Of a DNA stretch of 64,000 nucleotides, positions 13,261 through 32,015 are shown one piece after another. Position 1 is the first letter of the stretch. The number at the start of each line of letters is the position of its first letter. Below the pieces are notes generated by a model. That model searched no databases. It was not told the DNA's origin and was given only the letters and a program-made list of their open reading frames with translations. The position numbers and the translations under genes were made by a program. The DNA is taken from assembly GCA_963835355.1 (NCBI GenBank), contig CAWIFE010000011.1:70848-134847 (forward strand), in the 5' to 3' direction. Source of the DNA: an uncultured Acidobacteriaceae bacterium (GTDB lineage Bacteria > Acidobacteriota > Terriglobia > Terriglobales > Acidobacteriaceae).

Positions 13261-13851
13261 CTAAATCCTCACTTCGATATCGGGACGGCTCTTCGCCAGC
13301 AACCTGGTTTCGATTGCCTTTAGTTTTGCCGGGTCAACGCGAAAGCGCTCGGGAACAACAGCGATTTCGGCTGTTGGGGCCTCTTCGCCCTTTTCCTTAA
13401 TGGTGATAACGCCAAGACGCCCAATCCCATCCTCGGAAAACCCGAAATGCGCGAGCTCTCCAAAAGCTCGGTCGAAGCTCTCCACCGGAATTGCCAGATA
13501 CCGATAATGCGCGGGCAGGCACATCACCTTGCGATGAATGTCTCTGAGCTTCTCGATGTATTTAGCATCATGCGTTGCGTACACCTCGTTGTATTTCTTG
13601 GAGTTCGATGGGTCGATCCGTTGGCCCTCGAAAGGATTGAGATCGCGTGCCAGCTTGATCTCGACGGCGTGCAGGTCACCCGCACCAGCCCGATCTACGG
13701 CGAGCACGTCGGCTGCAATCAGACTCGCGGGCGGTTCAAGGTAAATATTGGGAACGGAAAGTGTCCTTCGCAAGAGCTCTGCAACGGCATTGATGGCGCG
13801 ACCTTCTCTCTGGCGCGTTGTCAGCTTCCGGGTTTCTTCCTTTACAGTCAT
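13261..13851 (-). CDS. Hypothetical protein with a PD-(D/E)XK nuclease-like motif
   Basis: AADVLAVDRAGAGDLHAVEIK fits D...(D/E)xK; lower GC than the flanks; ATG lies 4 nt after the upstream stop. Confidence 0.55.
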   Translation of the reverse strand: MTVKEETRKLTTRQREGRAINAVAELLRRTLSVPNIYLEPPASLIAADVLAVDRAGAGDLHAVEIKLARDLNPFEGQRIDPSNSKKYNEVYATHDAKYIEKLRDIHRKVMCLPAHYRYLAIPVESFDRAFGELAHFGFSEDGIGRLGVITIKEKGEEAPTAEIAVVPERFRVDPAKLKAIETRLLAKSRPDIEVRI

Positions 13852-13855
13852 GACA

Positions 13856-14257
13856 TCACCTTCCTTCCCGTTTTTGCAGAATCCGTTCCGCCCAAGCCCG
13901 AAATCGCTCGGCGGTTATACAGAGTGCCTCAACCCTTTCGTCGTCGACACGCTTTTCGCCATAGGAAATGTCTGTCTTAGTACTCATAAGCTTTTGATAG
14001 TGAGTGATCCCGTGCTGATCGATCTTCGCTCGAGTGCACGCTCGCCTTAGAGCGGTGACTGCTTCTCGATGGTTCTCGCCTCGTGGCCGTGTACCGCCGA
14101 GCCCAATCAAAACAGCATCGCTATAGGAGATGGCGCTGTGCACAGCCAGAAGTGCCGCGGCAGACGCGTAGGCCGACAGATCGTCCCGGCAGAGTTTCAT
14201 CGCGTCGGCAAGCTGTGTCGCCCGGCGATGGTAAACGGTGAAACTCGCCTCGGCCAT
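13856..14257 (-). CDS. HEPN-like helical protein (putative RNase toxin)
   Basis: 133 aa, all-helical; LLAVHSAISYSDA...RPRGENHREAV contains Rx(3-5)H; K..ISYG in the C-terminal half resembles small HEPN proteins. Confidence 0.6.
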   Translation of the reverse strand: MAEASFTVYHRRATQLADAMKLCRDDLSAYASAAALLAVHSAISYSDAVLIGLGGTRPRGENHREAVTALRRACTRAKIDQHGITHYQKLMSTKTDISYGEKRVDDERVEALCITAERFRAWAERILQKREGR

Positions 14258-14845: not shown

Positions 14846-17800
14846 TCATCGAAAATCCCTCGACCGCACCTCCACTCGCGTAATCTCCAGCGGCACAATC
14901 CGCTGCGCCTTCACATGAATCACGCCCTCCTGGTTTTGCACCGGCCCCTCGATGCGCAGGAAACGGTTCCGCGTCACCACCACCCGGTCGCGCTCAAAAA
15001 CATCCGGCGTCAGAATCACGTTGGCAATCCCCGTCTCGTCCTCCAGCGACAAGAACACAAATCCCTTCGCCGTGCCCGGCCGCTGCCGCGCAATCACGCA
15101 TCCGGCAATCGCAACGCGCCTGCCGCTCCTTAACGCCTCCAGCTCTCTTGCCGAAAAAATCCCCTCTGTCCGCAACTCCATGCGGTGATACGCCATCGGA
15201 TGCGGTCCAGTCGTCAATCCCGTCCCCGCATAATCCGCCGCCAGCCGCTCCTCCGTCGTCATCTGCTTGAGCGGCATCGCCGCCGCGCGATCCGCAGCAG
15301 CCGCTCCGCCGCCGGAGTTTTTCTCGCTTGGCTCCGCTGTCGCGCCACACTGTTCTGCTGGTGCCCCATCATTCGGTCGCCGCGGCGACCGAAGGGTGGG
15401 AACCGCCGCTCTGTCGCGCCCATCCCCGCGTCCAGCCTCCGTCCCGCGCAGCAATGGTCCCACCGGCCTTCCCGCCCACTCCACCTGCCACAGCGCATCG
15501 CGCCTGTGCTCCACTTCGCCCAGGGAATTCAGCGCCCCAATCTGTGCCAGCGCCACCAGCTCTTTGCGGTTCAGCTCCGGAACACGCCGCGTCAAATCGT
15601 CCACGCTGGCGAATCCTCCCGCGCCGCGCGCCGCAATCACTGCTTCCGCCGAGCTCTGCCGCAATCCTTTCGCATAATTCATTCCCAGCCGCAGCGAAAT
15701 CGACCCATCCGCTTCCTTCTCCAGCGTGCACAGCCACTCCGAACGCTGCACGTCGATCGGCCGCACCCTCAGCCCATGCCGTTGCGCATCCTTCACCAGC
15801 ACCGCCGGCGAATAAAATCCCATCGGCTGGTTATTCAGCAATCCACACGTGAACGCCGCCAGAAAATGCACCTTCAAATACGCCGATGCATACGCGATCA
15901 GCGCAAAACTCGCCGCATGGCTCTCGGGAAATCCGTACATCGCGAACGACGAAATCCCCTGCACAATGTTGTCCTGCGCCGCCGCATCCACGCCGTTGCG
16001 CGTCATCCCATCGCGCAGCCGCCCCTCCAGGTCCTTCATCCGCTGCATCGATCGCCGCATGCCCACCGCGCGCCGCAGCTCTTCGGCCTCCGCGCCCGTA
16101 AAGCTCGCTACCACCATCGCCATGCGCAGCAGTTGTTCCTGAAACAGCGGCACGCCCAGCGTCCGCTTCAGCACCGGCTCCAGCAGCGGGTGCGGATACG
16201 TCACCTCCTCCTTGCCCTGCCTGCGCCGCATATATGGATGCATCATCTTGCCCACAATCGGTCCCGGCCTGATGATCGCCACCTGCACCACCAGATCGTA
16301 AAAACGCACCGGCGCGTTGTGCGGAATCGACGCCATCTGCGCGCGGCTCTCCACCTGGAACATCCCCACCGTGTCCGCCTTGCACAGCGTTTCGTACACC
16401 ACCGGATCTTCGGGCAGCAGCGCCAGGTCCACCTGCTTGCCGTAGTGCCGCGGGATCAATTCAATCGACTCCTTCAGCGCCGCCATCATCCCCAGCCCCA
16501 GCAGGTCCACCTTGATCAGTCCCATGTCGGCGCAATCTTCCTTGTCCCACTGGATCACCGTCCGCCCCGGCATCGACGCGCGCTCAATCGGGACCACACG
16601 ATTCAGCATTCCCGCGCAGATCACCATGCCGCCCGAGTGCTGCCCCAGGTGCCGCGGCAGATCCTTCATGCGCAGGCACAGGTCCAGATACCGCGCAATC
16701 CGCGGATGCCGCACATCGAATCCCGCCTGCGCAAAATGTTTCTCCATCGTGTCGTTCGGGCCGCGCCATTCCCAGTGGCCCATCAACCCCGACAATCGCG
16801 CCGACTGCTCCTCTTCGAATCCCAGCGCCTTGCCCACCTCGCGCGCCGCCGACCTCCCGCGATACGTGATCACGTTCGCCGTCATTGCCGAGCCCAGCGC
16901 GCCGTAGCGCTCATACACGTACTGGATTACCTGCTCGCGCTCGTCGCCCGATGCCAAATCGAGATCGATGTCCGGCCACTCGCCGCGGTTCTCGCTCAAA
17001 AATCTCTCGAACAGCAACTCCATCCCCACCGGATCAACCGCCGTAAGCTCCAGCGCGTAGCACACAGCCGAATTCGCCGCCGACCCGCGCCCCTGCACCA
17101 GAAATCCGCGCCACTGGCAGTAGCGAATAATGTCCCACACGATCAGGAAATAGCCCGCAAACCCCAGCTTCGCGATCAGCGCCAGCTCGTGCTTCACCTG
17201 CGCCCGCGCCCTCTGGAGCAAATGCCGCTTTGCCGGCGATCCGTACCGCTTGCGCACGCCCTCCTCCACGCGCTTGGCCAGAAAGCTGTCCATCGTCTCG
17301 CCTTCCGGCATCGAATAATGCGGAAATTCGTAGCCGAGATCTTTGAGCGAAAACTCCAGCCGCTCGCTCACAATGCGCGTGTTCGCAATCGCCTCGGGAA
17401 TGTCCTCGAACAGCGCCGCCATCTCGCGCGCCGTCCGCAGATGCCGCGCCGTATTCCGAGCCAGCAACCGCCCCGCGCGGTCCAGCGCCGTGTGGTTGCG
17501 GATCGCCGTGAACACGTCGAGCATCTCGCGGTCCTTCTCCTCCGCATAGCGCACGCCGTTGGTCGCAATCACCGGCAGGCCAAGGCTCTCCGCTGTACGA
17601 AGCAGCGATTGATTGCGGCACTCCTCTTCGCGCTCCTGGTGCCGCTGCAATTCCACGTACAAATTGCCGCGCCCATAAATCGCAGCCAGCCGCTCGGCAA
17701 TTTTTCGCGTCTCGCATTCTCCGCCGCGCGCGAGCGCCGCCGCCAGCGGTCCCTCCTCGCCGCCCGTCAGGCAAATCAGCCCCGCCGAAAACTCTTCCAG

Positions 17801-18364
17801 GTCTTCGACCGTCGCCGCGCCTTCCGCCTTCGTCGCCTCCCGCATCTTGAAGCGCGTAATCAGTTGGCACAGATTCTGGTAGCCAACCTGCGACGCGCAC
17901 AGCAGCACCACCCGCGCCGGCTCTTCGGGAAACTGATGCGGCAGCCATCCCGGCGGCGTCGCGCGGCTGCCCAGCGAAGACACCGCAATCTCCGCCCCAA
18001 TGTGCGCCTTCACGCGGCACGGTTGCGCCGCCGTGTGAAAGCGCGCCGCGCCGTACACGCCGTTCCGGTCAGCCAGCGCAATCGCCGGCATCTCCAGCTC
18101 CACTGCGCGCTGGATCAACTGCTCTGGCAGCGTCGCTCCGGCCAGAAAGCTGAATGCGCTCGTCGCGTGCAACTCAACGTATTCGCAATGATTCGCGTTC
18201 GCCGGTGGTTTTCGCTTGTCATCCTGAGCGAGGTCGCCTCGGCGACCGAGTCGAAGGATCTGCGGTTGCTCTTTGTCGGTTTGTTCTACAAGCTTCGATA
18301 CCGGCGGCTCGTACGCATCATTCGGATGGCACACAGGCGTCCCCGGCGAGTGTGCATTCGGCAC
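14846..18364 (-). CDS. dnaE2: Error-prone DNA polymerase III alpha (DnaE2/ImuC)
   Basis: YVELHATSAFSFL, GRGSAANS, PDIDLD, LGQHSGG, IKVDLLGLGM, GFPESHAASFA, RQRPGTAKG and C-terminal SRDFR. Confidence 0.97.
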   Translation of the reverse strand: MPNAHSPGTPVCHPNDAYEPPVSKLVEQTDKEQPQILRLGRRGDLAQDDKRKPPANANHCEYVELHATSAFSFLAGATLPEQLIQRAVELEMPAIALADRNGVYGAARFHTAAQPCRVKAHIGAEIAVSSLGSRATPPGWLPHQFPEEPARVVLLCASQVGYQNLCQLITRFKMREATKAEGAATVEDLEEFSAGLICLTGGEEGPLAAALARGGECETRKIAERLAAIYGRGNLYVELQRHQEREEECRNQSLLRTAESLGLPVIATNGVRYAEEKDREMLDVFTAIRNHTALDRAGRLLARNTARHLRTAREMAALFEDIPEAIANTRIVSERLEFSLKDLGYEFPHYSMPEGETMDSFLAKRVEEGVRKRYGSPAKRHLLQRARAQVKHELALIAKLGFAGYFLIVWDIIRYCQWRGFLVQGRGSAANSAVCYALELTAVDPVGMELLFERFLSENRGEWPDIDLDLASGDEREQVIQYVYERYGALGSAMTANVITYRGRSAAREVGKALGFEEEQSARLSGLMGHWEWRGPNDTMEKHFAQAGFDVRHPRIARYLDLCLRMKDLPRHLGQHSGGMVICAGMLNRVVPIERASMPGRTVIQWDKEDCADMGLIKVDLLGLGMMAALKESIELIPRHYGKQVDLALLPEDPVVYETLCKADTVGMFQVESRAQMASIPHNAPVRFYDLVVQVAIIRPGPIVGKMMHPYMRRRQGKEEVTYPHPLLEPVLKRTLGVPLFQEQLLRMAMVVASFTGAEAEELRRAVGMRRSMQRMKDLEGRLRDGMTRNGVDAAAQDNIVQGISSFAMYGFPESHAASFALIAYASAYLKVHFLAAFTCGLLNNQPMGFYSPAVLVKDAQRHGLRVRPIDVQRSEWLCTLEKEADGSISLRLGMNYAKGLRQSSAEAVIAARGAGGFASVDDLTRRVPELNRKELVALAQIGALNSLGEVEHRRDALWQVEWAGRPVGPLLRGTEAGRGDGRDRAAVPTLRSPRRPNDGAPAEQCGATAEPSEKNSGGGAAAADRAAAMPLKQMTTEERLAADYAGTGLTTGPHPMAYHRMELRTEGIFSARELEALRSGRRVAIAGCVIARQRPGTAKGFVFLSLEDETGIANVILTPDVFERDRVVVTRNRFLRIEGPVQNQEGVIHVKAQRIVPLEITRVEVRSRDFR
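15360..15401 (+). repeat. GGTG-tagged REP-like hairpin, in frame inside dnaE2
   Basis: ggtgccccatcattcggtcgccgcggcgaccgaagggtggga encodes VPTLRSPRRPNDGAP; related copies at 20586 and 30660. Confidence 0.75.
18217..18268 (+). repeat. TGTC/CGTC-type REP-like element in the dnaE2 5' region
   Basis: tgtcatcctgagcgaggtcgcctcggcgaccgagtcgaaggatctgcggttg. Confidence 0.75.
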
Positions 18365-18395
18365 CGAGTGCGTATTCGGAATATCGCTGCTCAGG

Positions 18396-20177
18396 TCAGT
18401 CGTAAAACGCCTCCAGCCGCCACGTATTCTGCCCTCGATCGCGCGTCAGCAGGCACGCCACAGATCGGCCGCCGTTCATTGCCGCCAGCACATCCCACTC
18501 CTCCGCGTCCCATGTGTCCAATTCCCACCAGCAACCGCTCGTCTTCCATGGCCCATACGCCGCCGCAATCTCGTACCGGTTCTCTCCATCGCTGAACGCA
18601 ACAGGCCTCATCACAGAAGTTTGAGTGCCCCCGGTTCGGGGTCCCCACGGACTGGTTTTCGTCCGTGGGGTGGAGATCCCTCGCATTTGACGACCGGGGT
18701 GAGCACTACACTGCGTACTCGCACGAAAAACTGATCCCTGATCCCTGATCCCTGATCCCTGTATTTGCACCCGCACCAACCGCGCCGGCCTCACGCGCCG
18801 CATCGCCATCCGCGGCGTCGCCTCCATCTCCGCTTCGCCACGATCATGGGTGCCCCCGGTCCCTCGCATTTGGGGACCGGGGTTAACAAACCCCTCCATC
18901 CGGAATCCGTCCGCGCGATGCGTATCCTCCAGCACCGGCGACCCCACGCGCTCCTCGCCCACCATCGCGCGCAACCGCGCCAGCGTCACATCCAGCCGCG
19001 AGGGCTCCGGTGTCTGCGGCGCAAACAATCCCAGCTGCACCTTGCTCTGCGCTCCCGCTTCGGCCCGCAACGTGAGCCGAACCACAGCCGCCTGCGGCGG
19101 ATGCGCTCCAATCTCCAGTTGCAGCAGCTTGAGCAGAAATTTCCGGTCAATCGTCGGCACCGCCGGCCGGATCGCACAACCATGCGTCACTCCGCCCTCC
19201 AGTCCCATCTCGGCCGTCAGCGAACGCAGTGCCAGCGCCCGTCCCGCGGCCCGCGTCGCCAGGCAATCGATCATCCGCGCGCCCACAAAGAGCAGGGAAT
19301 CGATCTGCTCCACCGGCATCTCGAACTCGCAAAACTCCTCGAGCGAAAACTCCGCCTCAATGGGCTCGAACGCATGCTCCGCTTCGCCGCGCGCCAGCGC
19401 CCGCCACACGCGCGCCTTCGGACCCATTCGCGCTACCAGTTCCGCCTCGGGCAGTGCCGCCAGTTCGCCCAGCGTGCCAATGCCCCACAGCGCGAAGGTC
19501 GTCGCGTACTCTTCATCCAGCCCCAATGCCGCAATCGGCAACTTGGCCAGCGCCTCTGCCTCCGCGCCTTCGCAGATCACCGCCGTCCCCTTGGCTCCTC
19601 CTTTGTAGCGCCGGTCTCCAGACCGGCTGTCGTGCGGGTCTCCCGACCCGCACTTACGAACGCGCATGCTCGCCGCCTTCATCCGCGCTGCATGGTAGTT
19701 CGCGCTCACCGCAATCGACGCGCGAAACCCAGCTGCAGCCAACTCCTCCTTCAGCCGCTCCGCCAACTGTGCCGGTGGCCCAAACAGCCGCTCCGTGCCC
19801 GCAATGTCCAGCACAAACGCGCACGCAGTTCCACTGCTGGCCCCAAGCGTGCTCGCATCATTCAAGCCCGCGCCGCCGCTGACCTCTTGAATCCGCGGAG
19901 AAAACTCCGCCGCGCACTCGAGCATTACCGCCCGCGCCGCCGCCTCGCTTTCCGCCGAGCGCTTGAGCAGACGCAGCCCCTGCATACTCTCCGCTTCAAG
20001 CCGCGTCATTCCCGCCGCCGCGCCCCTCCGCTCGGCCAGCCGGTTCAGTGAGCAGACCCACTCCTCGGGAGCGCGCCCATCCAGCACCACCACCGGTTCC
20101 GTCTGCCAGTCCGTCCGCAGCCGCAGCAGTGCCTGCGCGGGAAACTCCGCCGCCCATGCGCACGCAAAGAGGCTCAT
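18396..20177 (-). CDS. imuB: ImuB, Y-family polymerase-like protein, with three repeat-derived in-frame insertions
   Basis: PVVVLDG..PEEWVCSLN..A...G...GMTR, LDIAGTERLFG and AAYGPWKTSGCWW; ATG overlaps the imuA stop (ATGA); located between imuA and dnaE2. Confidence 0.92.
   Translation of the reverse strand: MSLFACAWAAEFPAQALLRLRTDWQTEPVVVLDGRAPEEWVCSLNRLAERRGAAAGMTRLEAESMQGLRLLKRSAESEAAARAVMLECAAEFSPRIQEVSGGAGLNDASTLGASSGTACAFVLDIAGTERLFGPPAQLAERLKEELAAAGFRASIAVSANYHAARMKAASMRVRKCGSGDPHDSRSGDRRYKGGAKGTAVICEGAEAEALAKLPIAALGLDEEYATTFALWGIGTLGELAALPEAELVARMGPKARVWRALARGEAEHAFEPIEAEFSLEEFCEFEMPVEQIDSLLFVGARMIDCLATRAAGRALALRSLTAEMGLEGGVTHGCAIRPAVPTIDRKFLLKLLQLEIGAHPPQAAVVRLTLRAEAGAQSKVQLGLFAPQTPEPSRLDVTLARLRAMVGEERVGSPVLEDTHRADGFRMEGFVNPGPQMRGTGGTHDRGEAEMEATPRMAMRRVRPARLVRVQIQGSGIRDQGSVFRASTQCSAHPGRQMRGISTPRTKTSPWGPRTGGTQTSVMRPVAFSDGENRYEIAAAYGPWKTSGCWWELDTWDAEEWDVLAAMNGGRSVACLLTRDRGQNTWRLEAFYD
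18623..18765 (+). repeat. Composite in-frame insertion in imuB: GGGGTCCCC element nested in a GRGTG hairpin, plus (CTGATCC)x4
   Basis: gagtgcccccggtt[cggggtccccacggactggttttcgtccgtggggtggaga]tccctcgcatttgacgaccgggg; tandem repeat at 18731-18761. Confidence 0.75.
18848..18882 (+). repeat. GGGTG-tagged REP-like hairpin, in frame in imuB
   Basis: gggtgcccccggtccctcgcatttggggaccgggg. Confidence 0.8.
19605..19653 (+). repeat. GTAG-tagged double-hairpin REP-like element, in frame in imuB
   Basis: gtagcgccggtctccagaccggctgtcgtgcgggtctcccgacccgcac encodes CGSGDPHDSRSGDRRY. Confidence 0.78.
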
Positions 20178-21052
20178 GCGCTTCTCTCCGCATCCCACGC
20201 CGCATGCGCCTGCCAGGTCGCGGCCGGCGGCTTTCGCGTCGTGATCTCGATCGGAGCTGACCGCTCTCTCTCGCGACGCACCGCAAACTCGAAGCCGCGC
20301 AGCACCGGCCCGCCCGCCGGCTCCACGCGCCGTGCCGAGCACTCCAGCACCACTGCCGCTGCCGACTTCGCATACCCGCGCGTCCCTACAACAATCAGGC
20401 TGCACTGCGTCCTCTCCGCCGCCTGCCTGTACCGGAACCACGTCGCCAGCGGAATCCTGCTCGCTTGCTCCGGCGCCGTATCGCCCAGGTCGAGCACAAT
20501 CGCCGCAAATCCCCCAGCCTGCAGCAGTAGGTCCGTCGCCCGCAACCCCTGGTCCAATCGCGCCCATGCGGAGCTCACCCACCGTGGGTTTGCCCCACCC
20601 TTTCGCACCGTCTGATCGCGCGAAGGGTGGGCTCTAGCGCCCTCGTTCCCTTCGCAATTTGTGCCCGAAGGGGTTCCTTGTTCCCTTGTTCCCTTGGTCC
20701 CTTGGTCCCTTGCTTTACACCGCATCCACAGCACCTGTTTCAGCCACACCCCATTCGCCGCGGCCGACTCCGGATCGAACGCGTCATTCACGTCCACCCA
20801 CGCGCACGCCCGCTCCTCCGCCGTCCTCTGCGCCACAAATTGGAGCGCCAGGCTCGTCCTCCCTGACGACGCCTCTCCTGTCACCTCGCTGATCGCGCCC
20901 ACCGGCAGTCCGCCATGCAACAGTTCGTCGACCGCCCGAATTCCCGTCGTCGCAACCTCGTACATCGCGCGCGGCGCAGGCGTCAGCGCTGCGGGAAACT
21001 TGCGTTCCAGCGCGTGCTCAATCTCCAAACGAAGTGCGGCGGCAGTAGGCAT
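20174..21052 (-). CDS. imuA: ImuA/RecA-like protein with an in-frame repeat insertion
   Basis: TGIRAVDELLHGGLPVGAISEVTGEASSGRTSLA, WVDVNDAFDPESA and LLLQAGGFAAIVLD; first gene of the imuAB-dnaE2 cassette. Confidence 0.9.
   Translation of the reverse strand: MPTAAALRLEIEHALERKFPAALTPAPRAMYEVATTGIRAVDELLHGGLPVGAISEVTGEASSGRTSLALQFVAQRTAEERACAWVDVNDAFDPESAAANGVWLKQVLWMRCKARDQGTKGTREQGTPSGTNCEGNEGARAHPSRDQTVRKGGANPRWVSSAWARLDQGLRATDLLLQAGGFAAIVLDLGDTAPEQASRIPLATWFRYRQAAERTQCSLIVVGTRGYAKSAAAVVLECSARRVEPAGGPVLRGFEFAVRRERERSAPIEITTRKPPAATWQAHAAWDAERSA
20586..20712 (+). repeat. REP-like hairpin (20586-20632) and 8-mer tandem (CCCTTGKT, 20676-20712), in frame in imuA
   Basis: gggtttgccccaccctttcgcaccgtctgatcgcgcgaagggtggg; ccttgtt-cccttgtt-cccttggt-cccttggt-ccct. 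Confidence 0.7.
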
Positions 21053-21074
21053 GCGATTCGAGGCGTTTCTAGTT

Positions 21075-21089
21075 TTTCGCCTTTTGTTC
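21075..21089. promoter_or_regulatory. LexA (SOS) box-like direct repeat upstream of imuA
   Basis: TTTC-GCCTTTT-GTTC has one mismatch to the GTTC-N7-GTTC box known for Acidobacterium and Alphaproteobacteria LexA; ~23 bp upstream of the imuA ATG. Confidence 0.65.
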
Positions 21090-21294
21090 GCCTAATGTAC
21101 CGCCAAATCGCCTCTCCTGTCAAAGGTAGAATCCACAGATTTTTCCACTGATTTCGGCCGACTTCATGTTCTTGCACCAGGATCGGTGCATAGCCGCGCA
21201 GTATGCCTAACCATATCGAATTTCTATAGCTTGCACCTCGACTACCATCCAGCTTTCCATCGACCGACTAACCCCGCTAACTCCGCTAGCTCCG

Positions 21295-22845
21295 CTAACC
21301 CCGCTGCTTTTTTCCCACCAGCTCCGCCCTCGCCGCCAGCCCCATCGCCATCGCCATCACCCGGTCGTCGTGGGTCCCAGCCTGCGCCCCGCTCGTCCCA
21401 TTCGCCTGCCGCACAAAGCTCCGGCACTCCCCCAGCAGCCGCCGGCTCTGGAATCGCTCCGGCTCCTCCACCAGCGCCGCATTCAGGCGCCCCAGTATTG
21501 CCGGCCGGCTCACGCTCGTCGTCAGCCAACCCGCCTGCCCGCCCTGCCTATAAATTCGCCCGTACTTGCACGCCGTCTCCGCCAGCGCCAGCACGCCCGA
21601 GCCGTGGTTGTTCCGTTCCACCACCAGCCACGCCCCGTTGTATTCCGTCGCCAGATCGGTCACAAACCGCGCCAGTTCAAGCCCGCCGACGTGCCCGGCA
21701 AACTCCGCGCACTGCAACCCCGTCTCCATCTCCAGCACCTCGGCCGCGGAGTAGTCGCCTTCACTCCCGCCTCCTGCCGGATCCACCGACACCACGTACT
21801 CTCTGCCCTTCACCGGCGGCAGCCAAATCTCCAGCTCCCCATTCTGTCTCCGCTGCACCGGCTCGGGAACAGTCTTCATCCGTGCCTCCACCGCCGCCAG
21901 CTCAAACACGCTCTCGCCGCTCGCCAAAAAGCAGCTGTCCACATCCTCGGCAAACTCCTGCCGCGCCAATCCGCGAAAATCCGCACGAATTTGCCTCCGG
22001 TACCCGATCTGATTCAGATCAAGCCCGTGCGCCGTCATGAGCGCCCGCTCTTCCTCCGTCAGGCTCGCCTCGCTCACTGTCCTTGCCCGGTACCCTGGCT
22101 CCATCCACCACGGGAAAAAATGCCGCACCATCCCCGTCTCATCAGCCTTCAGCCACTCTTCGTGAAAGCACCCTCCCACTCCCTGCGGTGTCGACTCCAG
22201 CACCATCTCCGCTCCCGGCGCTAACGCCGCGCGCAATCCCGCCAGAATCTCCGCCGCGTCTCCGGGCCAGCGCGCAATCTCAGAGCAGTGCAGGTTCTGC
22301 ACCGTCAATCCCCGTCCCGCGTTCCGGTCGGCCGCGCTCACCACGCGATACTGCGCATCGATCCGCGGAAACACGATCTGCCGCACATTCGACCGCGCCG
22401 TCCTCAGCGCCCCTTTCCGGGCCCTGTCCGGCAGCCAATCCACAAACCGGTGCACGATGCGGAAAATCTCCTCCGCCGCCTCCTGCGTGTGCGCCACTTC
22501 CAGCGTTAGAGTTCCCGGCTGGGTGATCGTCTTTAGAAAAAATCGCGCAGCCACCCACGTCGTCAGTCCCATCTGCCGCGCCTTCAGCACAATGTTTCGC
22601 TGCCCGCGCCGCTTATCAAACGCCTGCTGCACGGCATTGGCCTTCAACATCGCTGGCTTTCCATCTCGCGTCCTCACCACCAGCACGGCTTCCGCCATCG
22701 CCATCGCCACAGTCCGCCCCCCCGCGATGTCTGACGGCGTATCCAGAATTTTTCCGAGTTGCTCCAGTTGCTCTCTGCCCAGCTTCCTCTGGATCGACTC
22801 GACTGCCAGTGCTCCAACTGAGCTTTCCTCATCCACTGCCGCCAC
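21295..22845 (-). CDS. Phage terminase large subunit (orphan)
   Basis: Walker A VLKARQMGLTTW, Walker B LHCSE, VLESTPQG, nuclease motifs VSVDPAGGG..GDYS, VVERNNHG and HDDRVMA. AGGAGG precedes GTG 22845. Confidence 0.9.
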   Translation of the reverse strand: MAAVDEESSVGALAVESIQRKLGREQLEQLGKILDTPSDIAGGRTVAMAMAEAVLVVRTRDGKPAMLKANAVQQAFDKRRGQRNIVLKARQMGLTTWVAARFFLKTITQPGTLTLEVAHTQEAAEEIFRIVHRFVDWLPDRARKGALRTARSNVRQIVFPRIDAQYRVVSAADRNAGRGLTVQNLHCSEIARWPGDAAEILAGLRAALAPGAEMVLESTPQGVGGCFHEEWLKADETGMVRHFFPWWMEPGYRARTVSEASLTEEERALMTAHGLDLNQIGYRRQIRADFRGLARQEFAEDVDSCFLASGESVFELAAVEARMKTVPEPVQRRQNGELEIWLPPVKGREYVVSVDPAGGGSEGDYSAAEVLEMETGLQCAEFAGHVGGLELARFVTDLATEYNGAWLVVERNNHGSGVLALAETACKYGRIYRQGGQAGWLTTSVSRPAILGRLNAALVEEPERFQSRRLLGECRSFVRQANGTSGAQAGTHDDRVMAMAMGLAARAELVGKKQRG

Positions 22846-23072
22846 CTGCCCCTCCTGCCCTCGTCCGGCATTCGTGCGCACACTTGCAGGCTTGGCGCAC
22901 GACTGCCCAGGTCGCGCGCCAAGCGAAGGCGCAACTCCGCCCCCGAGCCGCACCTCCGATCTCGCTCCATCAATCTGTGTTGTCTTTGTTGCGGCTGCCC
23001 TGTGTCGTATTTGTTAGAGGTGCCGCACCCTCATCACAGCGGTTTTGCTCTCAGGGCTCGATGCTCGCGCGC

Positions 23073-23148
23073 CCCTAAGTCCCTAAGTCCCTAAGTCCCT
23101 AAGTCCTTAAGTCCCTAAGTCCCTAAGTCCCTTGGTCCCTCGTTCCCC
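23073..23148 (+). repeat. Tandem 8-mer (CCCTAAGT)x7 plus two degenerate units
   Basis: Read directly; one unit is CCTTAAGT. The minus strand reads (ACTTAGGG)n. Confidence 0.95.
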
Positions 23149-23154
23149 GCCTTC

Positions 23155-26100
23155 TCAGTACCCGCCGCACCAATACTTGAGCGTGTAAGCCGTCGACGCC
23201 GTCAACGCCGCGTTCGCGGTAATCGTGATCGCCGTCGTGCTTTCCGTCCATGTGTTGCTGGAGATCATCCCCGTCGCGCTCAACGTGCTCACCATGCAAT
23301 TGGCTTGGTTCGTGTGCGTGTTTGGAAAGCTCAGCGTCGCCAGCGTTCCTGTCGTCGGACTCGTCCCCGTCGTCAGTGTCACCGTCCCGCTCACTCCGTC
23401 GCACAGGTGGCTCGTCGCGCACGCAATCGTCGGGCTCGAACCCGCCGCCGCGCCCGCCGCTACGCCCATCGTCCCCGTCCCCATGATGAACTTGCCTTGC
23501 AGAAATCCCGTCGCCGTCGTGTTCCCGCTGCCGCTCACCTGAAGTGCGGCAGTCGAAGAATTCGACCCGCCCTCATACACGATGAATCCGCCCGTGCCTG
23601 ATCCGCTCGTGTTATTGACCACCACGGCGTTCGCGCCGGCCCCCGCATTGATCGTTGTATTCGCATTCGCCGGTAGGATCACCCGGTCCAGCGAATTCAC
23701 TGCGTCGGTCACTCGCAGATAGTTGCTCGCGTCCTTGCGCACTTGCCATTCCGCGGTACCCGAATAGTTGCTGAACTGCAACGCTCCGATCTGGTCCACG
23801 CTCGATCCCGGCTGAATCGCCAGAGTCTGATTGAAGTTCGCTCCGTTCTGCAGCGTCGCGTTGCCCTGCAGGTTCGTCGCCCCGCTCACGCTCAGCGTTC
23901 CGCTCAGCGTTTCCGACGCCCCCGCCAATGTTCCGCTCACTGTCGGCGCAGACAGCGTCGGGCTCGCCGCCAGAACCACGCTCCCGCTGCCCGTCGTCCC
24001 CGCTGCCACCGGCTGCCCGCTCGCGTTCGTCGCCAGCACGCTGACCGAAGCCGGCACAGCTACGCCATTGATCTTGCTTACTGTCGGGTTCGGATAGCTT
24101 CCCCCAAGATCGCCGCCGGCAGCTCCGCTCGGAGCTAGACCCGAAGGCGTGCCTGAGATCTGCGAGTACGCCACCTGCGTGCACGTTGGACCGCCGGTCG
24201 TGTCTCCCGTCTCGTATTGACCCGTCGTGCAGGAGCTTGTCCCGGCCTTCGCCGTCAGGCTCGAAACCAGCACGCCGCTATCTTGTTCCTGGCCGGCGGT
24301 GCCGGTGTAAGTAACCACGTCGCCCGCGGCCGAAGTTGCTGGCCCGGTCGGCACCGCCGCACCGGCTCCAGTTGTGTTGATTGCCGTTGCGCTAAGAACC
24401 GGCTGGTTCCCGTTGTAGTCCGCCTGGTATGGCCTGATCCCTACGAACTCAAGCTTAAGGTCATTACTTGCGCTGCTGGCCTCAAATCCAAAATTACGCC
24501 CATTATAGGAAGAGAGATCGATAGTCGCTGAGGGGGTTGGGTCGGAAGGCGTACCTGCGTGATAGGTGGGGCTGCAAGTTCCCGAGATCGTTCCGACGGC
24601 GGTGTAAGTGGTGTTCGGAATGATAGCCAAAAGCGTGACCGTATATGACGTAGAAGTTGCGCATTTGCCGTTGGCATAAACAACGCTCTTCATCGCTGGA
24701 ACCTCTTGCCCCGGTCCTATAAGCGCCCTACCTCCGCCTGAGTAGTCCTGCGCAATCATGCTGTAAAAAGTCTGGACGAGACCAGAAGGTACGCTGGTGT
24801 TAAACAGATAGGTTTTTCCGAAATAGGCAGTTGAATCCAACGACAACTGTGCTGAATCGTTCGGCGCACCCGTCTCGAAATCGTCAGGGCCAAACAAAAG
24901 GTCATTGTCGCTAGGGTAAGCTCCGGCGTTTCCATTCCTAAAAGAATCGGCCGTCCGCGCTCCGACGGGCTGATCGAAAATGGTCTTCGAGATCGTCGAA
25001 CTGCGGCTTGCACTTCCTCCACCAGACGGATTGAAACCGCGCATGACGATCTGATTCCCGATGCCGTTGTCTATCGGCTGCACAGTTTGGAGTGAGCCGG
25101 TGAAGCCGATATAGTTTCTTGAACCATTGAATTGCGGAGTTCCAGACCAATTGCAATTGATGCAGTTAGAATCGGAAGCATCCCATATCGGACCAACCGA
25201 TAATCCCGTGTAGCCGCCAAGCTGGACGTTAGTGAAGGAATGTTGGGCGCCTTCAACACGCCAACCGTAATTGTTTGTTAGTGGACCCTCAGTCTCGGGA
25301 ACATTGACTGTCCATGCGAAAGGGAAATCTGCATCGGATAGTCCTGACTGCAAAATCTGAGGTCCATAACCGCCGTCAAATACCTGAATTCCGCTCAGAG
25401 TTGCATCTCCACCGTCGTAACTAATCCACGGATAAGTATCCTGCCAGTAGCCGCCCCGCCAACTTAGATAATCCTGTAAGCCTTGCGATTGATACGAATC
25501 TAGTTCGGATGGAACAAACGCTGCCCCAAAATTCAGTCCCGCGAGCGAACTATTGGTCGCCGTAAATCCGTACGGTGAATAGCATCCTTGTATGAAGATA
25601 CCGGCCGATGCGTTCGTCGCATAATTCGGAGTACTCGTGAACCTGACATTGGCCAGTTCATCGCCATCATTGCCTGGAGCTCCAGTCATCGTGTAGTCGG
25701 CGCTGTTCCCATCTTTGCAGTCGAAGGCCAGAGCGGCATTCCCGACAGTCTGGGTCACGGGCAATCCCGCAACGGAAATGTAAGCCGTGCCCGTGCCCGC
25801 TGTGACAGTTGTCGATGCGGCGGTAGCGATCCTCACCGTTCCACTCGCTGAATATGTTTTGTCGGTCGGACTTGAGCATGGAGTTACGGCGGCAATCGTA
25901 GTCACGAGGTTAGCCCCTGCAACTCCGCAACCGTTGAATTGCACAGCCTGCCCTACGTCACCGCAAGTGAACAGTGCGTGTGGAGATGTGACCACGGCAC
26001 TGCCCGCCGTGCATCCGGCATCCTGCACCCACCGCCCCGGCCAGCGATGCGGAAAACTGGAAGAAGCGTTGACTGAATCGTCTACTTCAAAAACGATGTC

Positions 26101-29100
26101 GCGAATCGACCACGAAATGCGGGGCGCGGCGGTTGTAACTGTCGTCGGATCAGGTGCCTCGAAAACATCCTCTCCAGGTTGTCCTTTGATTAGAACTCCA
26201 GCGCTTCCCTGAGCAGGGTTGATTCCGGCTGGTTGCTGACCCTCCAACGACACGCCATACCACGGCAAGGTGCTCGTTAGGTAGCAGCCTCCCGGCGGCA
26301 ATGGAAAATAAACTGTCGCCGGCGGATTCGTCGCATTGGCAGCATTCAATGCGGCGTTAATCGCCGCCTGGTCGTCAGACGAACAGTCGCCCTTGGCGTT
26401 GAAGGGCGGCGCCATCACATTCACTTTCGTGTTGACGCTGGCATTGAGGGAGGGCCCCGTCAGCCTGCTTGAAAAAGTCTGCGGAGTTGTGGCTGCAGCG
26501 GAAAGAGCGCCCAGGTTCGCCAGCGCGCCGCTGGCACTGGTTGCTCCCGTCCCTCCACCAGTAAGCGGAACTGCGTTCATGCCGCCGAGCGCCGTGCCGT
26601 TCCCCATGTAGTACGCAATCTGTCCCGAGCTTGCTGAATTGATCGTCCCGTTCACGCCGCCCGATCCTGATCCGCTTCCGCAGGGCGATCCGGTATTCGT
26701 GATGTATCCCGAGTTATCGATCTGCAGGCAAAAGTCCCCCGACGAAGACGCCAGTCCGGGAAACTTGATCGCATTCGGTGCCACAAATGCGGCGTCGAGG
26801 ATCGAACTCGATCCCGAATAGATATCCGTCTCCGCCCCGGAGCCACTCTCATAATTCAATCGGATATGTCCCGTCGAGTTACTCGTATCTATGTAGGTAT
26901 CGCCGCTGTTTGTGTTTTGATACGCCTTGAAGCTGTCTAACCCTCCGATTGCCGAATTAATCGCCCAGTTATTGCTCGCGTCCTTCACCAGGTACCACTG
27001 GCTGGCCCCGTTCCAATCCTTGTAAGTAAGCGTCCCTTTCTGGCTCGTTGTAAGTCCAGGCCATAGGTAAAAACCGATCTCCGCGTCCGCGCTGTTGCGC
27101 GCAGTAATCGACCCTACCGATTGCGTGGTCCCTCCCACCTCCAGAGTTCCCACGAACTGAGCGTCTCCGGCTTTGTCGACCGTGCCCACTGCCGCCGGTG
27201 AAGTGCCGCCGCTGGCAAACGTCACTCCGCCTGTTCCGGAATTCGTCGAGCAGTTGAAGCACACATTGCCCGTCCCCGCGGCATTCAGCGCGGTTTGATT
27301 GTTGGTGCTGCTCTGTCCTTGATTCCACTGCTGAATCTGCAGCCGGTATACGTTATTGAGCAAGTCCTGCACCTGGTAGAGCTGCTGGCCGCTTGTGGCG
27401 TCGCTGAATCCATAGAGCCAGCGATAACCATAGTCTGTCTGGATCTCGTTAAGCAGCCCGCGCTCGTTCCCCGCTCCAGTCCCCAGCCGGAAGTGATTGG
27501 TCAGCGTCGCGTCTTGCTGGCTTCCATACCAGTCACCATTCAATGCGTTGAAACTCCGGTGAAACGTATCGAGGAAGCTGTTGCGCGTGCCGTTGTCGGT
27601 CAGCTTTCCGTTGAACATCGTGCCGCCCGTGATCCAGTTGTTGTACGCGCTCCCCGCATCCGCTACCACCTGGCTTGTCGAGTTCTCGTTCCGCAACCCG
27701 ACGATCGTGTTGTTCTGCGCGTTCGGTCCTAAGTGCAGCGCTGTCGAGCATCCTTCTACATCCCCTCCGGTAAACGTGTTTCCATCGCCCTGTTGTAAGT
27801 TGATCCCATAAGTGCCGCTGATCGGGTTCCCGCCGCTCGTCGGGCAGTCGATGTGCAGCCGCACAAACGTGCTTGCATTCGCCCAATCCGTCGTCGCGGA
27901 GTTTGTATTCTGGTGCCCGATCGCATTCACGGCCGTCCCGAATCCGCTGAACTGGTTATCTAGGTACGTGCCGCCCGTGTAATTCCCGGTTCCGTCCAGA
28001 GTCATACCCGTCTGGTTCGAGTTACCAAGGAAATACAAGCTTTCTAAGTCCATCTCCTGCGTCCGGTACGCAACCAATCCCTCTGCTGTCGCGCTGGTAG
28101 CTCCCGTCGTATTGACCACCACGTTGTCCATGTGGAAGCCCGGCGTGTCCGTCGCATATGTCGCGTCGCCCACCTGCACCATTGCGCTCGATCCCGTGTA
28201 GGCGAACGCCGTTCCGCCCGTGCTCCCGCTCGCCTGCGTCCCGCCGCGCAGAGCGCACCCGCGCAACGACACGTTCCGCGTCCCCGCCGTCACAACAATC
28301 TGGTTCGCCGTCGTGATCGTCGCGCACGGCAGCAAAATCGCCACATTCCCCGTCGAGATCGTAAGATTTTCGCCCCAAGTCAGATTGCCCGTGAAGTTCC
28401 GCGCGTCGCACGTTCCGCCGTAGCTCGCATTCACTGCATTCACGCACGCCTGGATCTTCGCTCCAATGTCCGCGCCCGGAAATTGATCCACCTGGAAAGC
28501 TGACCCAACTCGCCCGCTTCCGGCCAAAGCGCCGTAAGTCCCACCGCCAGGCAGCGTCCCGCCTCCGCCGTCAAGTTGTGTTCCGTAGCTCGCCGAGTTC
28601 GCCGCGTTCCACACCGTGTACCCGCCGTTGCCCTTCAGCAGATTTCCGGCGAAGAACGTCATATCCTGCCCGCCAATCAGGTTCACCGGCGCTGCCGTAT
28701 TCCAGGTCCCCGCCGCGTTCACGCTCGCTGTAGTCGTCGCGGAGCAGCCCACTCCGCCTTGTGTCACGCTCACGCTTGCAATCGATCCGGTTGCATTTAC
28801 GGCCGCCGTTGCCTGCGCCGAGCACAACCCGCTGAACGCAACCGGTACATTCGCTCCGTACGGGTCCCATCCCAGCCCGTGCTCACTGCCCACTGTTACC
28901 GCCGTCACTGCGCCGCCCGTCGTCGTCACCGCCAACGTCGGCTGCACCGCGTTCCAGGCTGGAACCACAACCGCGTTCCGTACTGTCCATCCCTGTTGCG
29001 GATTTTGCCCGCTTCCGTTCAGGTCCAGCACCAGGCCTGTCGGCGGCTCGCCGGTCGCTGAAGAATTTCCCGCCAGCGCCACCACGTTATCCAGAACATT

Positions 29101-30715
29101 GTTCGATCCCGCGGCCGCCGTAAACGCGTGCGTTGCCTGGATCGTCACGTTTTGCCAACGATTCGAATCCGCATTCAACCCCGCCGGCGCCGTCATCGAT
29201 AGCGCCGGAATCGCCACGCCCGTGTTTAGTCCGCGAATGTCGATGTTCCGGAACTCGCTCCACTGCGGCCACTGCGCCAGATAAATGCCGCACGTGTGCG
29301 TCGAATGCGCGCCCGGGTATTGCGCGGCCATCGGATCCACGCCTGTCGCCGCAATCTCCACGTTTTCGATCTCCGCCACGCGCAGCCCGTTGCCTCCCGC
29401 GCCTGTCGTGGCCTGCATCGCAATCGCGCAGTTGCCAACGCCCCAAGCCGCGCCCGTTCCCGCTGTTCCCGTCAGTCCATTTCCGCCCGGCGAAAAAATC
29501 GAGTTCGCTTCCATCGGCCGGTTCGACTGGCAGCTCCCCGCCGCCGCACGCCCCTCTGCCGGCGAACACGACACATCCACGCTCTGGTCCACATAAATCG
29601 TCAGATCGTGCAGCCGTGTGTAGCTCAAAATATTCGTCGCGTCCGGCCCGCTCTCCAGCACATCCTGCCCCGGAAATCCCATCAGAGCCGACACCTGCTT
29701 GCCCAATCCTCCAATCGATTGCCCATGCCAGCTCAGCGCCCGCGTCTTGCACGTCCCTTGCGGAATCGTCAGCGCCACGCCGTGCGCATTCGCGTAGCTC
29801 AGCGCCGCCTGCAGCGCGTTCGTATCATCGGTTACTCCGTCGCAAACCGCGCCGAACTCCTTCACGCTGCGCTCCGCCTGTTGCGCGCCCGTCGTGCGCA
29901 GGTCCGTCACTACCACGCCGCTCGTGTTCGTGAACGTATCATTCCCCGCATATGTCGGCGGAATCTCCATCGCCCCATTCGTTCCCGCCGCATTGATCGC
30001 AGCTTGCAGCGTCGTCTGCGCGCTCGCTGCCGCCGGAGCCTGCACGCCGTTCATCGCGGGAGTTGTCAACGCCCCCGTCATATTTGCGCCCGCCAGTGGC
30101 ACCGCTGTCGCCACCTGCGTATCCACATAGTGTTTGTCCGCGGCCTGCAGAGTTTGCGTCGGATCGCTGCTCAAATACAGTGGCCCGGTCAGCGTTCCGC
30201 CTGTTGCTGTCAGTCCGCTGCTCTGGCTCGCCTGCGCAATGGCCTGGTCCACATACGCCTTGCTCACCGCCTGCACCGCTTGCGCCGCGGGCATCACCTT
30301 TGCCTGCACCTGCGCCAGGCTGGCCTGCGCCGCCGCCGGAACCATCCAATACTGCGTGCTCGTCGTCCCATCGCTCATGTAGTACACGGCCGTGTAGTAC
30401 TCTCCTGCAGGCGTCGCACCCACATTCGGCGCGAGGTTCACGCTCACAAATCCGTCCGGCCCAATGGTTCACCGTCGTCGTGTCCGCAGCCACCGCCTGG
30501 CCCGCCGCCGTCGTAAACGACGGCCAGCTGATCGACAATGTCCCTGCGCCCGGCTGCCCGTTCGCCAGGTACACCGTCCCCTGCACCGTCGTCGTGCTTA
30601 CTGCCTGCGCCATCATCGTCGCCGCCGCCAGCATCATCATCACTGCGCACGCCGCGATCGGTTGCCCCATCCTTTTCGCATTCTTCGCGAAAAAGGTGGG
30701 AGCCAACGACGTCAT
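23155..30715 (-). CDS. Giant (~2,520 aa) tailspike/tail-fibre-like beta-helix protein with a Sec-like signal peptide; +1 frameshift near 30468
   Basis: Joins ORF 29939-30838 to ORF 23155-30447 (TTTV-TIGPDGFVSVNLAPN). Signal AACAVMMMLAAATMMAQA; neck-like AADKHYVD; two pectate-lyase-3-like starts (SVKEFGAVCDGVTDDTNALQAA and VNVMAPPFNAKGDCSSDDQAAINAA); GGDLGGSYPNPTV fibre motif. Confidence 0.8.
30660..30701 (+). repeat. REP-like hairpin in frame at the N-terminus of the giant gene
   Basis: ggttgccccatccttttcgcattcttcgcgaaaaaggtggga encodes APTFFAKNAKRMGQP. Confidence 0.7.
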
Positions 30716-30904
30716 TTGCCTCACCTCGAACCATCCGTTTTTCATGAGCTTCATTCCCATCGCATCCTTCTTCTCACTGCAATTCGCAAACTCATTTCGC
30801 TGGGGCGGCCGCAGCGGATCGGTCTGCCCCAGCTTCACGCCCAGTCACCAATTGAATTTCAAGTTCCCCCATGCTCTCAGCGACACGTCGCGCGCTAAAG
30901 GCCA

Positions 30905-30965
30905 AGAGCTGAGAGCCAATAGCTGATAGCCGAACTGAGAACTGACAACTGACAACTGCCAACTG
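30905..30965 (+). repeat. Degenerate heptamer tandem repeat
   Basis: gagctga-gagccaa-tagctga-tagccga-actgaga-actgaca-actgaca-actgcca-actg. Confidence 0.7.
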
Positions 30966-30968
30966 TTC

Positions 30969-31394
30969 TTACGCCGCCTTGGTCTTTTCCTCTTCGTCAT
31001 TCGCCGCTTCTTTTGCCGCGGTCTTCTCTTTCCACAACTGGCCCGGCACCAGAATGTCCGCCAGCCCCGGCCCGTCCCAATTGTCGTCTTCGCCGTCTTT
31101 CTTCTTCTTCTCCATCAGCGACAACACCATCGCTGCGCAGTGCGCGTCGCCGTCTTCGGTCTTCTCCACTAGCTTTTCTGCAATCTTGGCTCTGCGGACC
31201 TTCACCACCGTCTTCACCGCCTGTCGCAGCGCCTTTCTCGCCCCCTTGTGATCTTCCTCCTCGATTCTCTCCGCCGCATCCTTCTCTTCGCCGTTTCCAC
31301 TCGCCTCCGCGTCTTCGCCGGTGTTCGTCCGCGGCATCGTCACCACCTTGTTCTTCTTTGGCTGCTTTACCTTGTCCACCTTGCTCTTTCCCAT
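30969..31394 (-). CDS. Highly charged hypothetical protein, possibly small-terminase-like
   Basis: Lys/Glu-rich with a helical core KIAEKLVEKTEDGDAHCAAMVLSL (A..GD..A-like hairpin); co-oriented with and upstream of the giant gene and terL. Confidence 0.55.
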   Translation of the reverse strand: MGKSKVDKVKQPKKNKVVTMPRTNTGEDAEASGNGEEKDAAERIEEEDHKGARKALRQAVKTVVKVRRAKIAEKLVEKTEDGDAHCAAMVLSLMEKKKKDGEDDNWDGPGLADILVPGQLWKEKTAAKEAANDEEEKTKAA

Positions 31395-31873
31395 TGCTCC
31401 GCCATTCCGGCCACCCATCCACGGTCCTTCCTGTGCCGCGGAAAAGGAAAAGGGGCAACCCGGCTACCGAGTCGCCCCTCCGCTCTCTTCTTCTTTCCTC
31501 GTACCCGCGCTCGCCGCGGTGATGGCCCGAAGAAGATCGGAAAAGCCTCTCGGCTTCTCCGTCAGTCAGAATCATTTCTGTATGATTGCTTCCAGCTTAC
31601 TCCAAACCGCATAAATTACCTGCAAACTTCGCTACCCTGAATCTTCTGCATGTTTTCAATCACTTAGCGATATTCTTGCCCTCCGGCCATTTGACAAATC
31701 TTCGACCCCGCGCCTCAAAGGCCTGCTTTCCACTGAGGGGACCCTTTCGCTCCTGGCCATTTGCTCTTACTCTCGTCCAACTCGCGTCATCCGCATCAGC
31801 TCTACTCCCACAACGCAAGCGGGAAGCCAATCGCTGACGGCTAACGGCTGCGTCTCATGCCCCTTACTTGCCA

Positions 31874-31902
31874 TTGATTCGCTCCTTGCGCCGTGGTATA
31901 CA
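31874..31902 (+). promoter_or_regulatory. Putative sigma-70 promoter
   Basis: TTGATT-N17-TATACA, with a TG dinucleotide just upstream of the -10. Confidence 0.4.
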
Positions 31903-32015
31903 ACTCCCAGTTCTTCGTGCCGCCTACAACAGATTTTTCTTTTGCATTTTCGCTTATCGTCCGTCGAAGCAGGGTCGCAACACCGCAACAATACCCGGCG
32001 ATGGGAGTCTTCGTC

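Follow-up and report, generated by a model that had tools for sequence, protein, structure and literature searches.

The region described here lies in a stretch of 64,000 nucleotides (nt) of contig C11 from the genome of an uncultured Acidobacteriaceae bacterium, and this whole stretch is referred to as the window. On the minus strand of the window, three co-oriented open reading frames (ORFs) encode a small charged protein, a giant protein and the large subunit of a terminase (TerL). A first-pass annotation of the same DNA had already recognised three co-oriented genes, which was confirmed, and had taken them for an orphan phage module and possibly for one locus of a dispersed gene transfer agent (GTA) or of another domesticated packaging system. 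The block proved to be one part of a gene cluster of the family Acidobacteriaceae, here called the element, whose other parts are found on contigs C8 and C1 of the same assembly.

The TerL ORF (21295-22953, minus strand, 552 codons) matched the terminase large subunit family phrog_2 of the PHROGs database with E=5e-26, and matches to further terminase PHROGs covered both its ATPase and its nuclease half. Pfam, NCBIfam and PDB sequence searches gave no match for TerL. The motifs NIVLKARQxGxTTW (Walker A-like), QNLHCSE (Walker B, in which the core HCSE has Ser replacing the usual Asp) and ESTPxG were at least 98% conserved in 81 species, as were the motifs VDPxGGGxxGDxSA, VVERNNHG and HDDxVMAMA. 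The protein therefore has the complete set of motifs that the first-pass annotation had reported, with the N-terminal ATPase and the C-terminal RNase-H-like nuclease with acidic residues by which large terminases are defined. Relatives of TerL carry stop codons inside the first ~51 codons of the listed ORF, which probably places the true start 40-60 codons downstream of 22953. The genome has one copy of TerL. More than 5,600 relatives were retrieved in a protein search, and the best 120 of them were 75-90% identical and were located on contigs of up to 2 Mb, some of them under the name 'terminase [Terracidiphilus sp.]'. The nearest TerL of sequenced phages, those of the podoviruses CRP-7 and 933W/Sakai type, were 27-28% identical over ~80% of the length.

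The giant gene precedes TerL. Its main open frame (23155-30447, minus strand, 2430 aa) is without its start, and an ATG was found ~250 nt upstream in another frame. A Sec-type signal peptide, MGQPIAACAVMMMLAAATMMAQA, is encoded in this 5' end (30463-30715, minus strand), as is the first half of a conserved N-terminal domain (N-domain); at its junction, the signal peptide reads …MMMLAAATMMAQA and is followed by VSTTTVQG…. The only family match of the giant protein was to the pectate-lyase-like beta-helix family PF12708 (E=8e-12). In all genera examined, the orthologues begin with a signal-peptide-like N-terminus, which is followed by the domain TTTVQGTVYRADG…SWPAF…YYT. Past the N-domain, they range in length from 800 to 3000 aa and are strongly variable in sequence. 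The identity to orthologues is 42% to 88%, compared to 71-89% for TerL. Neither the giant protein nor its N-domain has a paralogue in this genome. The first-pass annotation had proposed a tailspike-like protein of ~2,520 aa. PF12708 and the conserved, element-specific N-domain would suit a tailspike, but this label is weakened by the signal peptide, which marks the protein as Sec-exported, and by the lack of a phage homologue, and a length of ~2520 aa requires a frame change near 30463-30472 in addition to the 2430-aa open frame. A conserved anchor joined to a variable body would be the pattern of a receptor-binding protein.

Two side observations concern the giant gene. The GC content of the middle part (24000-28000) is 0.556-0.582, compared to ~0.63-0.65 in the flanks, and the uneven identity of orthologues along the gene fits a swapping of modules within the variable part. 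The GC content of the locus is otherwise host-like. In three family-level contexts (L048, L049 and L050), two tandem genes are located where the single giant gene normally sits. For L049, signal peptide and conserved N-domain are both found on each of the tandem genes; for L048 and L050, the conserved N-domain is found on the first gene only, and the second has a signal peptide with a different N-terminus.

The small charged protein (30969-31418, minus strand, 149 aa) is helical, and its orthologues are the genes located ahead of the giant gene in every genus. It is 43-58% identical in relatives and could be aligned with its positional equivalents of other genera, with the common core K.LR.A.K..V......IA..L.....G.....S...L.EL ... 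PSLAE.LA.EPEW. Five of 14 members of the family weakly matched DUF5681, a phage-associated family. Apart from this, neither the ORF nor the family profile had a match in Pfam, PHROG or PDB, to terminase small subunits or otherwise, and the giant gene separates the ORF from TerL. The label of a small-terminase-like protein is not supported, and a role as small terminase or as regulator is speculation.

The content of the cluster was defined from the 20-kb TerL contexts of 20 other genera of the family. In 19 of these 20 genera, the small gene, the giant gene and TerL head one contiguous, co-oriented cluster of ~20 kb, in which TerL is followed by the same eleven gene families in the same orientation. 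The order starts with a divergent helix-turn-helix (HTH) regulator and continues with a sigma-region-4-like factor (below, the sigma-like factor), the small gene, the giant gene, TerL, a HipA-like gene, a DUF3037 gene, an HK97-type portal, a protease-like and a scaffold-like protein, an HK97-fold capsid protein, an adaptor, two small proteins, a 325-aa protein and a ~770-aa protein. The right boundary is at purE-purK in this genome and in five of eight loci that were examined in other genera. The three genes of the window are thus the head of a common cluster, and the description as an orphan module did not stand.

The portal matched PF04860 with E=7e-56, and the head-tail adaptor matched phrog_442. 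The protease-like protein (~200 aa) has His...Ser motifs resembling those of prohead proteases, and the small scaffold-like protein is probably a coiled coil (both read by eye). The capsid protein (322 aa) was modelled with AlphaFold2 (AF2). With an alignment deepened by distant representatives, the predicted local distance difference test (pLDDT) was 83.7 and the predicted template modelling score (pTM) was 0.80, compared to a pLDDT of 44.7 from a shallow alignment of 20 sequences. The top Foldseek matches of the model were phage capsid and encapsulin shells, HK97 itself included (E~1e-11, probability 1.0), and by its predicted structure the protein is an HK97-fold capsid protein. The HipA-like kinase and the DUF3037 protein correspond to the candidate defence system PDC-M66A/B of PADLOC (E=5e-9 and 1e-6), and the pair is fixed between TerL and the portal in nearly all genera. 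For the cluster proteins numbered f2, f4, f5, f7, f9 and f17, no match was found in PHROGs, Pfam or NCBIfam, and profile searches of PDB with the capsid protein, f7, f9, f17 and the small protein gave no meaningful match. No integrase, replication or lysis gene was recognised in the cluster in the 20 genera.

A tblastn search of the whole assembly found every cluster protein, uninterrupted by stops and at full length. C11 has no other gene of the cluster, which agrees with the earlier remark that portal, capsid and integrase are absent nearby. The genes from the HipA-like gene through the 771-aa protein, with portal and capsid intact, are located at C8:1,024,693-1,035,680 and are followed by purE and purK; the HipA-like and DUF3037 pair takes up C8:1024693-1026742 (L051:8694-10743). 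The HTH and sigma-like pair was found at C1:360,401-362,336. The element is thus present in three pieces, which are at least ~335 kb apart according to their distances to the contig ends. None of the nine matches to the tyrosine integrase family PF00589 in the genome is on C11, C8 or C1. TerL and the capsid gene are likewise found on separate contigs in a second genome of the genus (G062), and the capsid gene has been kept in each of the five genomes sampled from the genus. As in a GTA, the structural and packaging genes are found in the chromosome, are bounded by host genes and are unaccompanied by modules for integration, replication or lysogeny.

Distribution in the family was assessed in 151 genomes, roughly one per genus. 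A TerL orthologue (50-76% identity) was present in 95 of them and the capsid gene (65-91% identity) in 96, both single-copy in most genomes. The two genes are found in nearly the same genomes, with co-occurrence in ~63% of genera, and where TerL is fragmented, as in a few genomes, the capsid gene is fragmented too. The sporadic occurrence of terL that the first-pass annotation had named as evidence to the contrary was not observed. In a phylum-wide high-quality sample, the capsid gene was detected in 30 of 35 members of the family and in none of the 366 genomes (0/366) of other Acidobacteriota families. Between genera, the capsid protein is 69-82% identical. Its profile matched 324 cluster representatives among 1.84 billion proteins, and tblastn with the capsid protein against 50,697 phage records gave no useful match. 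A look-up of a distant capsid relative returned contigs of 1.5-2.5 kb only.

Pairwise distances of TerL and RecA across 30 genera were correlated (Mantel r=0.45, permutation p≤2e-4), and the two trees share 10 of 27 bipartitions, compared to a mean of 0.2 and a maximum of 3 with shuffled labels. The distribution, the congruence of the trees, the identity of the capsid protein and the distance to known phages argue that the element was acquired once, in ancient times, and has since been inherited vertically and occasionally lost.

Two records of IMG/VR, L204 (98.6 kb) and L205 (29.9 kb), contain distant relatives of the head module, with capsid proteins 47-48% and portals 37-41% identical. No TerL relative was detected by tblastn within 10 kb of the capsid gene in either. 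They may belong to the phage lineage that gave rise to the element, or else to a second lineage that was domesticated.

The separation of the window block was followed in species-representative genomes, from which 80 loci of Terracidiphilus-like species with TerL 71-89% identical were obtained. The cluster is contiguous in 36 of the 80 loci and split in 44, where TerL is without the HipA-like gene and the portal downstream. Wherever the flank suffices, the small gene, the giant gene and TerL of the split loci are located between an NHL-repeat gene and dusB, as in the window, and this common host neighbourhood argues for one translocation in the ancestor of the subclade. The catalytic core of TerL is uninterrupted in 78 of 80 species. 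In the split clade it is uninterrupted in 42 of 44, and the other two have one internal stop each. The median pairwise ratio of non-synonymous to synonymous substitution rates (dN/dS) of TerL is 0.20 in split and 0.15 in contiguous loci, and no decay was seen. The element is vertically inherited and under purifying selection, as GTAs are.

A permuted order was observed in one lineage, in the IMG/VR records L181, L185 and L190, which read protease-like … f9, giant, TerL, HipA-like, DUF3037, portal, with one portal per record. This is another rearrangement in which the genes are intact.

Upstream of the small ORF, a conserved non-coding leader of ~270 nt (31430-31700, minus strand) comprises a promoter-like block, two hairpins and a terminator-like hairpin. 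It is 75-93% identical across 17 species (this one and 16 relatives), which exceeds much of the coding sequence. The conserved block is GAAGTTTGCAGGTAATT, and the promoter-like motif AAGTTTGCAGGTAATT is located at 31614-31629. A strong hairpin resembling an intrinsic terminator, with a U-tract, extends from 31481 to 31439, and ~20-30 nt separate its end from the ATG of the small ORF. In two species the leader has compensatory changes in its stems, and no match to the leader was found in Rfam. The leader may act as an antitermination or attenuation switch for the small-giant-TerL block.

Of 32 loci, 28 have the motif TTTGC[AC]G[GA][TG][ACT]ATT at most 450 nt upstream of the portal. Upstream of the small gene, the motif was found in 22 of 31 split loci and seven of 22 contiguous loci. 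Over 1.44 Mb, it had 107 matches on the gene strand compared to 25 on the other strand. In this genome, copies of the promoter-like motif are located upstream of both structural blocks, at 31614-31629 of the window and at C8:1,026,851. A copy of its own on each structural block would permit co-expression after the separation. A sigma-54 reading of the conserved motif was rejected, as the spacing, checked by eye, did not fit.

Two tandem arrays are located inside the block, as the first-pass annotation had noted. An 8-mer array, CCCTAAGT x 8.5, was found at 23073-23140 between the giant gene and TerL, and this exact type occurs at two genome sites only. A 7-mer array, AACTGAC x 4.7, was found at 30933-30965 between the small ORF and the giant gene. 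This type occurs at 13 genome sites, one of them upstream of the HipA-like gene on C8, and given this number a specific regulatory signal common to the window and the C8 upstream region was rejected.

Directly downstream of TerL, an imuA-imuB-dnaE2 mutagenesis cassette (14846-21052, minus strand) was identified by its RecA-like, IMS and DNA polymerase III (Pol III) alpha domains. It is present in 18 of the 44 split loci and missing from 26, whose flanks are the same, and it is therefore a later, variable insertion that is incidental to the element. A functional link between TerL and the cassette was rejected, since the cassette is variable and imuA has a promoter-like site of its own. Upstream of the block, proteins with NHL-repeat and PD40 beta-propeller domains are encoded on the opposite strand. 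A small two-gene insert (13261-14257) between rpmE and dusB had a tblastn match in one related locus only (L090). No tRNA gene was found in the window, and a search of 20800-32000 against Rfam gave no match.

We consider it probable that the window contains the translocated spike-and-packaging block of a particle cluster that is derived from a phage, owned by the host and inherited vertically in the Acidobacteriaceae. A terminase that is separated from the head genes stays intact in this clade, and a phage could not propagate in such a state, which argues for a machine of the host. The proposal of the first-pass annotation that this is one locus of a dispersed, domesticated packaging system is supported in this form by the partners on C8 and C1, by vertical descent and by purifying selection.

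The ancestral state would have been a single cluster of ~20 kb without integrase, replication or lysis genes. In the Terracidiphilus-like subclade, one rearrangement would have moved the small gene, the giant gene and TerL between the NHL-repeat gene and dusB, and a second would have separated the HTH and sigma-like regulators from the cluster. The three loci would be expressed together by means of the promoter-like motif common to both structural blocks, and the terminator-containing leader of the window block could gate this expression. Capsids would be assembled from the C8 genes, and TerL acting in trans would package DNA into them. The particles would serve the host, and the leading guess is gene transfer as in GTAs. 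Such a GTA function (particles, packaging of host DNA and transfer) is what we infer, along with particle formation as such, the packaged DNA, the route of release and the role of the giant protein.

A wider version of this proposal is tentative, and we give it somewhat less than an even chance. It holds that the element is a family-wide GTA of podovirus ancestry with a hypervariable, Sec-exported giant specificity protein, and that its blocks would be co-ordinated in trans by the sigma-like factor through the shared motif and the leader. The three-locus split of Terracidiphilus, which has lasted dozens of speciations, would then be a proof from nature that its parts function in trans for the host.

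Several observations weigh against a host-owned particle, or against parts of the mechanism. The element is absent from about one third of the genera and decayed in a few. A small terminase, a tail tube, a tape measure or a lysis gene could not be recognised in the cluster, and two of its large proteins (f9 and f17) are without a family match. A Sec-type signal peptide on the giant protein in every genus would be unexpected for a particle assembled in the cytoplasm, and neither the giant protein nor its N-domain had a useful tblastn match in the 50,697 phage records. The giant gene also has one extra base at 30463-30472 relative to 25 of 25 relatives, a 1-nt frameshift seen in this assembly only. 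At this point the relatives have GTG-ACCATT or GTGAACC-TT and the window has GTGAACCATT, which resembles a mixture of both alleles; because of this blend, a consensus artefact of metagenome assembly is plausible. As for the shared motif, a near-identical 16-mer, AAGTTTGC[AC]G[GA]T[ACT]ATT, was found at ~25 genome sites. Its copies are usually preceded by CTGAAAACAC, several are located at contig ends, and most have a CACAAT/CATAAT-like hexamer at a fixed 20 nt downstream, followed by repeat-rich non-coding sequence. The 16-mer may thus be a general or lineage-specific type of host promoter, or a dispersed repeat. The literature calls the corresponding regions proviruses (PMC5900883, PMC11924767).

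Some of these observations would also be explained by a host-owned particle or shell that has another role than transfer, such as defence, killing or DNA release, or, as a variant, by a packaging machine next to an unrelated secreted giant protein that binds or degrades glycans. We regard this as unlikely, with a modest share of the probability. A non-transfer particle would accommodate a giant protein that is Sec-exported and not phage-like, the candidate defence pair (PDC-M66A/B) with its fixed place within the cluster, and the lack of a recognised tail tube, tape measure or lysis gene. However, intact nuclease and ATPase of TerL together with a portal imply the packaging of DNA. The element-specific conserved N-domain with its variable remainder is as in receptor-binding proteins, and the giant gene remained linked to TerL through the translocation.

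An ordinary temperate prophage family ('Cluster 153' or 'group (ii)' of the literature), with the same integration site in many hosts and a rearranged copy in the window, we hold to be very unlikely. The phage head and packaging genes and the HTH regulator of the cluster would suit a prophage, as would the 31 IMG/VR contigs with the capsid gene that are listed as viral or proviral, the distant relatives (capsid 47-48% identical) within large IMG/VR records and the published naming as proviruses; the permuted gene order of some lineages is as in circular phage genomes. Against this, no integrase, replication or lysis genes were found in or beside the cluster, and distribution and phylogeny are unlike the mobile, patchy pattern of temperate prophages. 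The element is mostly single-copy, is restricted to one family and has a RecA-congruent tree, with the capsid protein 69-82% identical across genera. In 44 species TerL is apart from portal and capsid yet under purifying selection, an arrangement that would be lethal for a phage.

A decaying prophage remnant, on the way to loss or kept through a linked useful gene, is largely refuted and retains only a trace of probability. The lack of other phage genes at the locus, the frameshift of the giant gene in this assembly, the internal stops in two of 44 split-clade TerL and a dN/dS that is a little higher where the cluster is split (0.20) than where it is contiguous (0.15) had pointed in this direction. 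However, TerL has stayed intact in 78 of the 80 species, its catalytic motifs are conserved to 98% or more, every partner gene was found intact at another place in the genome, and presence and loss of TerL and of the capsid gene are correlated across the 151 genera. Equally improbable is a capsid-forming satellite island that makes its own heads and takes tails from a helper phage, resembling the capsid-forming phage-inducible chromosomal islands (cf-PICIs), as the richness in head, packaging and connector genes without recognised tail genes is outweighed by the absence of integrase, primase or other replication genes and alpA-type regulator in the 20 genera, by the fixed chromosomal site with vertical inheritance across the family, and by the persistence of the element when split into three loci.

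Acidobacteriaceae belong to the most abundant bacteria of acid soils and peat, and to our knowledge almost nothing is known about gene exchange in this family. If a particle of the host is indeed what the element encodes, a DNA-packaging particle owned by the host and retained in most of the family would be a candidate route of gene flow in these communities, and one of very few GTA-like systems outside the Alphaproteobacteria. Virus-prediction pipelines count the element as a provirus, and estimates of lysogeny for soil Acidobacteria would then be inflated. The main addition of the window is the split arrangement, with a TerL that looks functional dozens of speciations after its separation from portal and capsid. 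Cultured carriers of the element exist, among them Terracidiphilus gabretensis and type strains of Granulicella and Terriglobus.

A literature search found no proposal of a GTA in Acidobacteria. Eichorst et al. (2018, PMC5900883) described 'Cluster 153' prophages in six Acidobacteria, one of which is Ellin345, with the prophage at 5.15-5.19 Mb. Proviruses of 'group (ii)', related to the Ellin345 provirus, were described as widespread in Terriglobales (Demina et al. 2025, PMC11924767). In one of our sampled genomes the cluster is located at 5.163-5.185 Mb, which matches the published Ellin345 region, and on the basis of these coordinates 'Cluster 153' and 'group (ii)' are very probably the same element. 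Both papers regard these regions as proviruses, likely active or putative, whereas the fixed site, the host-congruent phylogeny, the purifying selection, the lack of an integrase and the split arrangement are unreported in them. Among sequenced phages, the best matches to TerL were the annotated terminase large subunits of podoviruses (Roseobacter phage CRP-7 and Stx2-converting phages of 933W/Sakai type), but these phages have no match to any other gene of the cluster.

The RcGTA-type agents of Alphaproteobacteria, known from Rhodobacter capsulatus, resemble the element in several respects. Both have a head, connector and packaging cluster without integrase or replication genes, with parts at separate loci, and both are single-copy, vertically inherited across a family or order and under purifying selection. 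Portal and capsid are HK97-type in both, with a sequence relationship that is undetectable beyond the level of fold or family. In contrast to RcGTA, the acidobacterial element has no recognised tape measure, tail-tube or small terminase gene, its TerL relatives are those of podoviruses, and it has a Sec-exported giant beta-helix protein and a HipA-like/DUF3037 pair embedded in the cluster. Its regulators are an HTH and a sigma-region-4-like protein.

In Faecalibacterium prausnitzii, the agent FpGTA is encoded by two operons ~125 kb apart, with a receptor-binding protein at a separate locus (Borodovich et al., Nat Commun 2026, PMC12946183). It belongs to a different phylum and is built from different protein families. 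For FpGTA, encapsidation of host DNA has been demonstrated and holin and endolysin are encoded in the second operon, whereas no lysis genes were found in the acidobacterial element. FpGTA is like the element in being GTA-like outside the Alphaproteobacteria, probably podovirus-like, compact and split.

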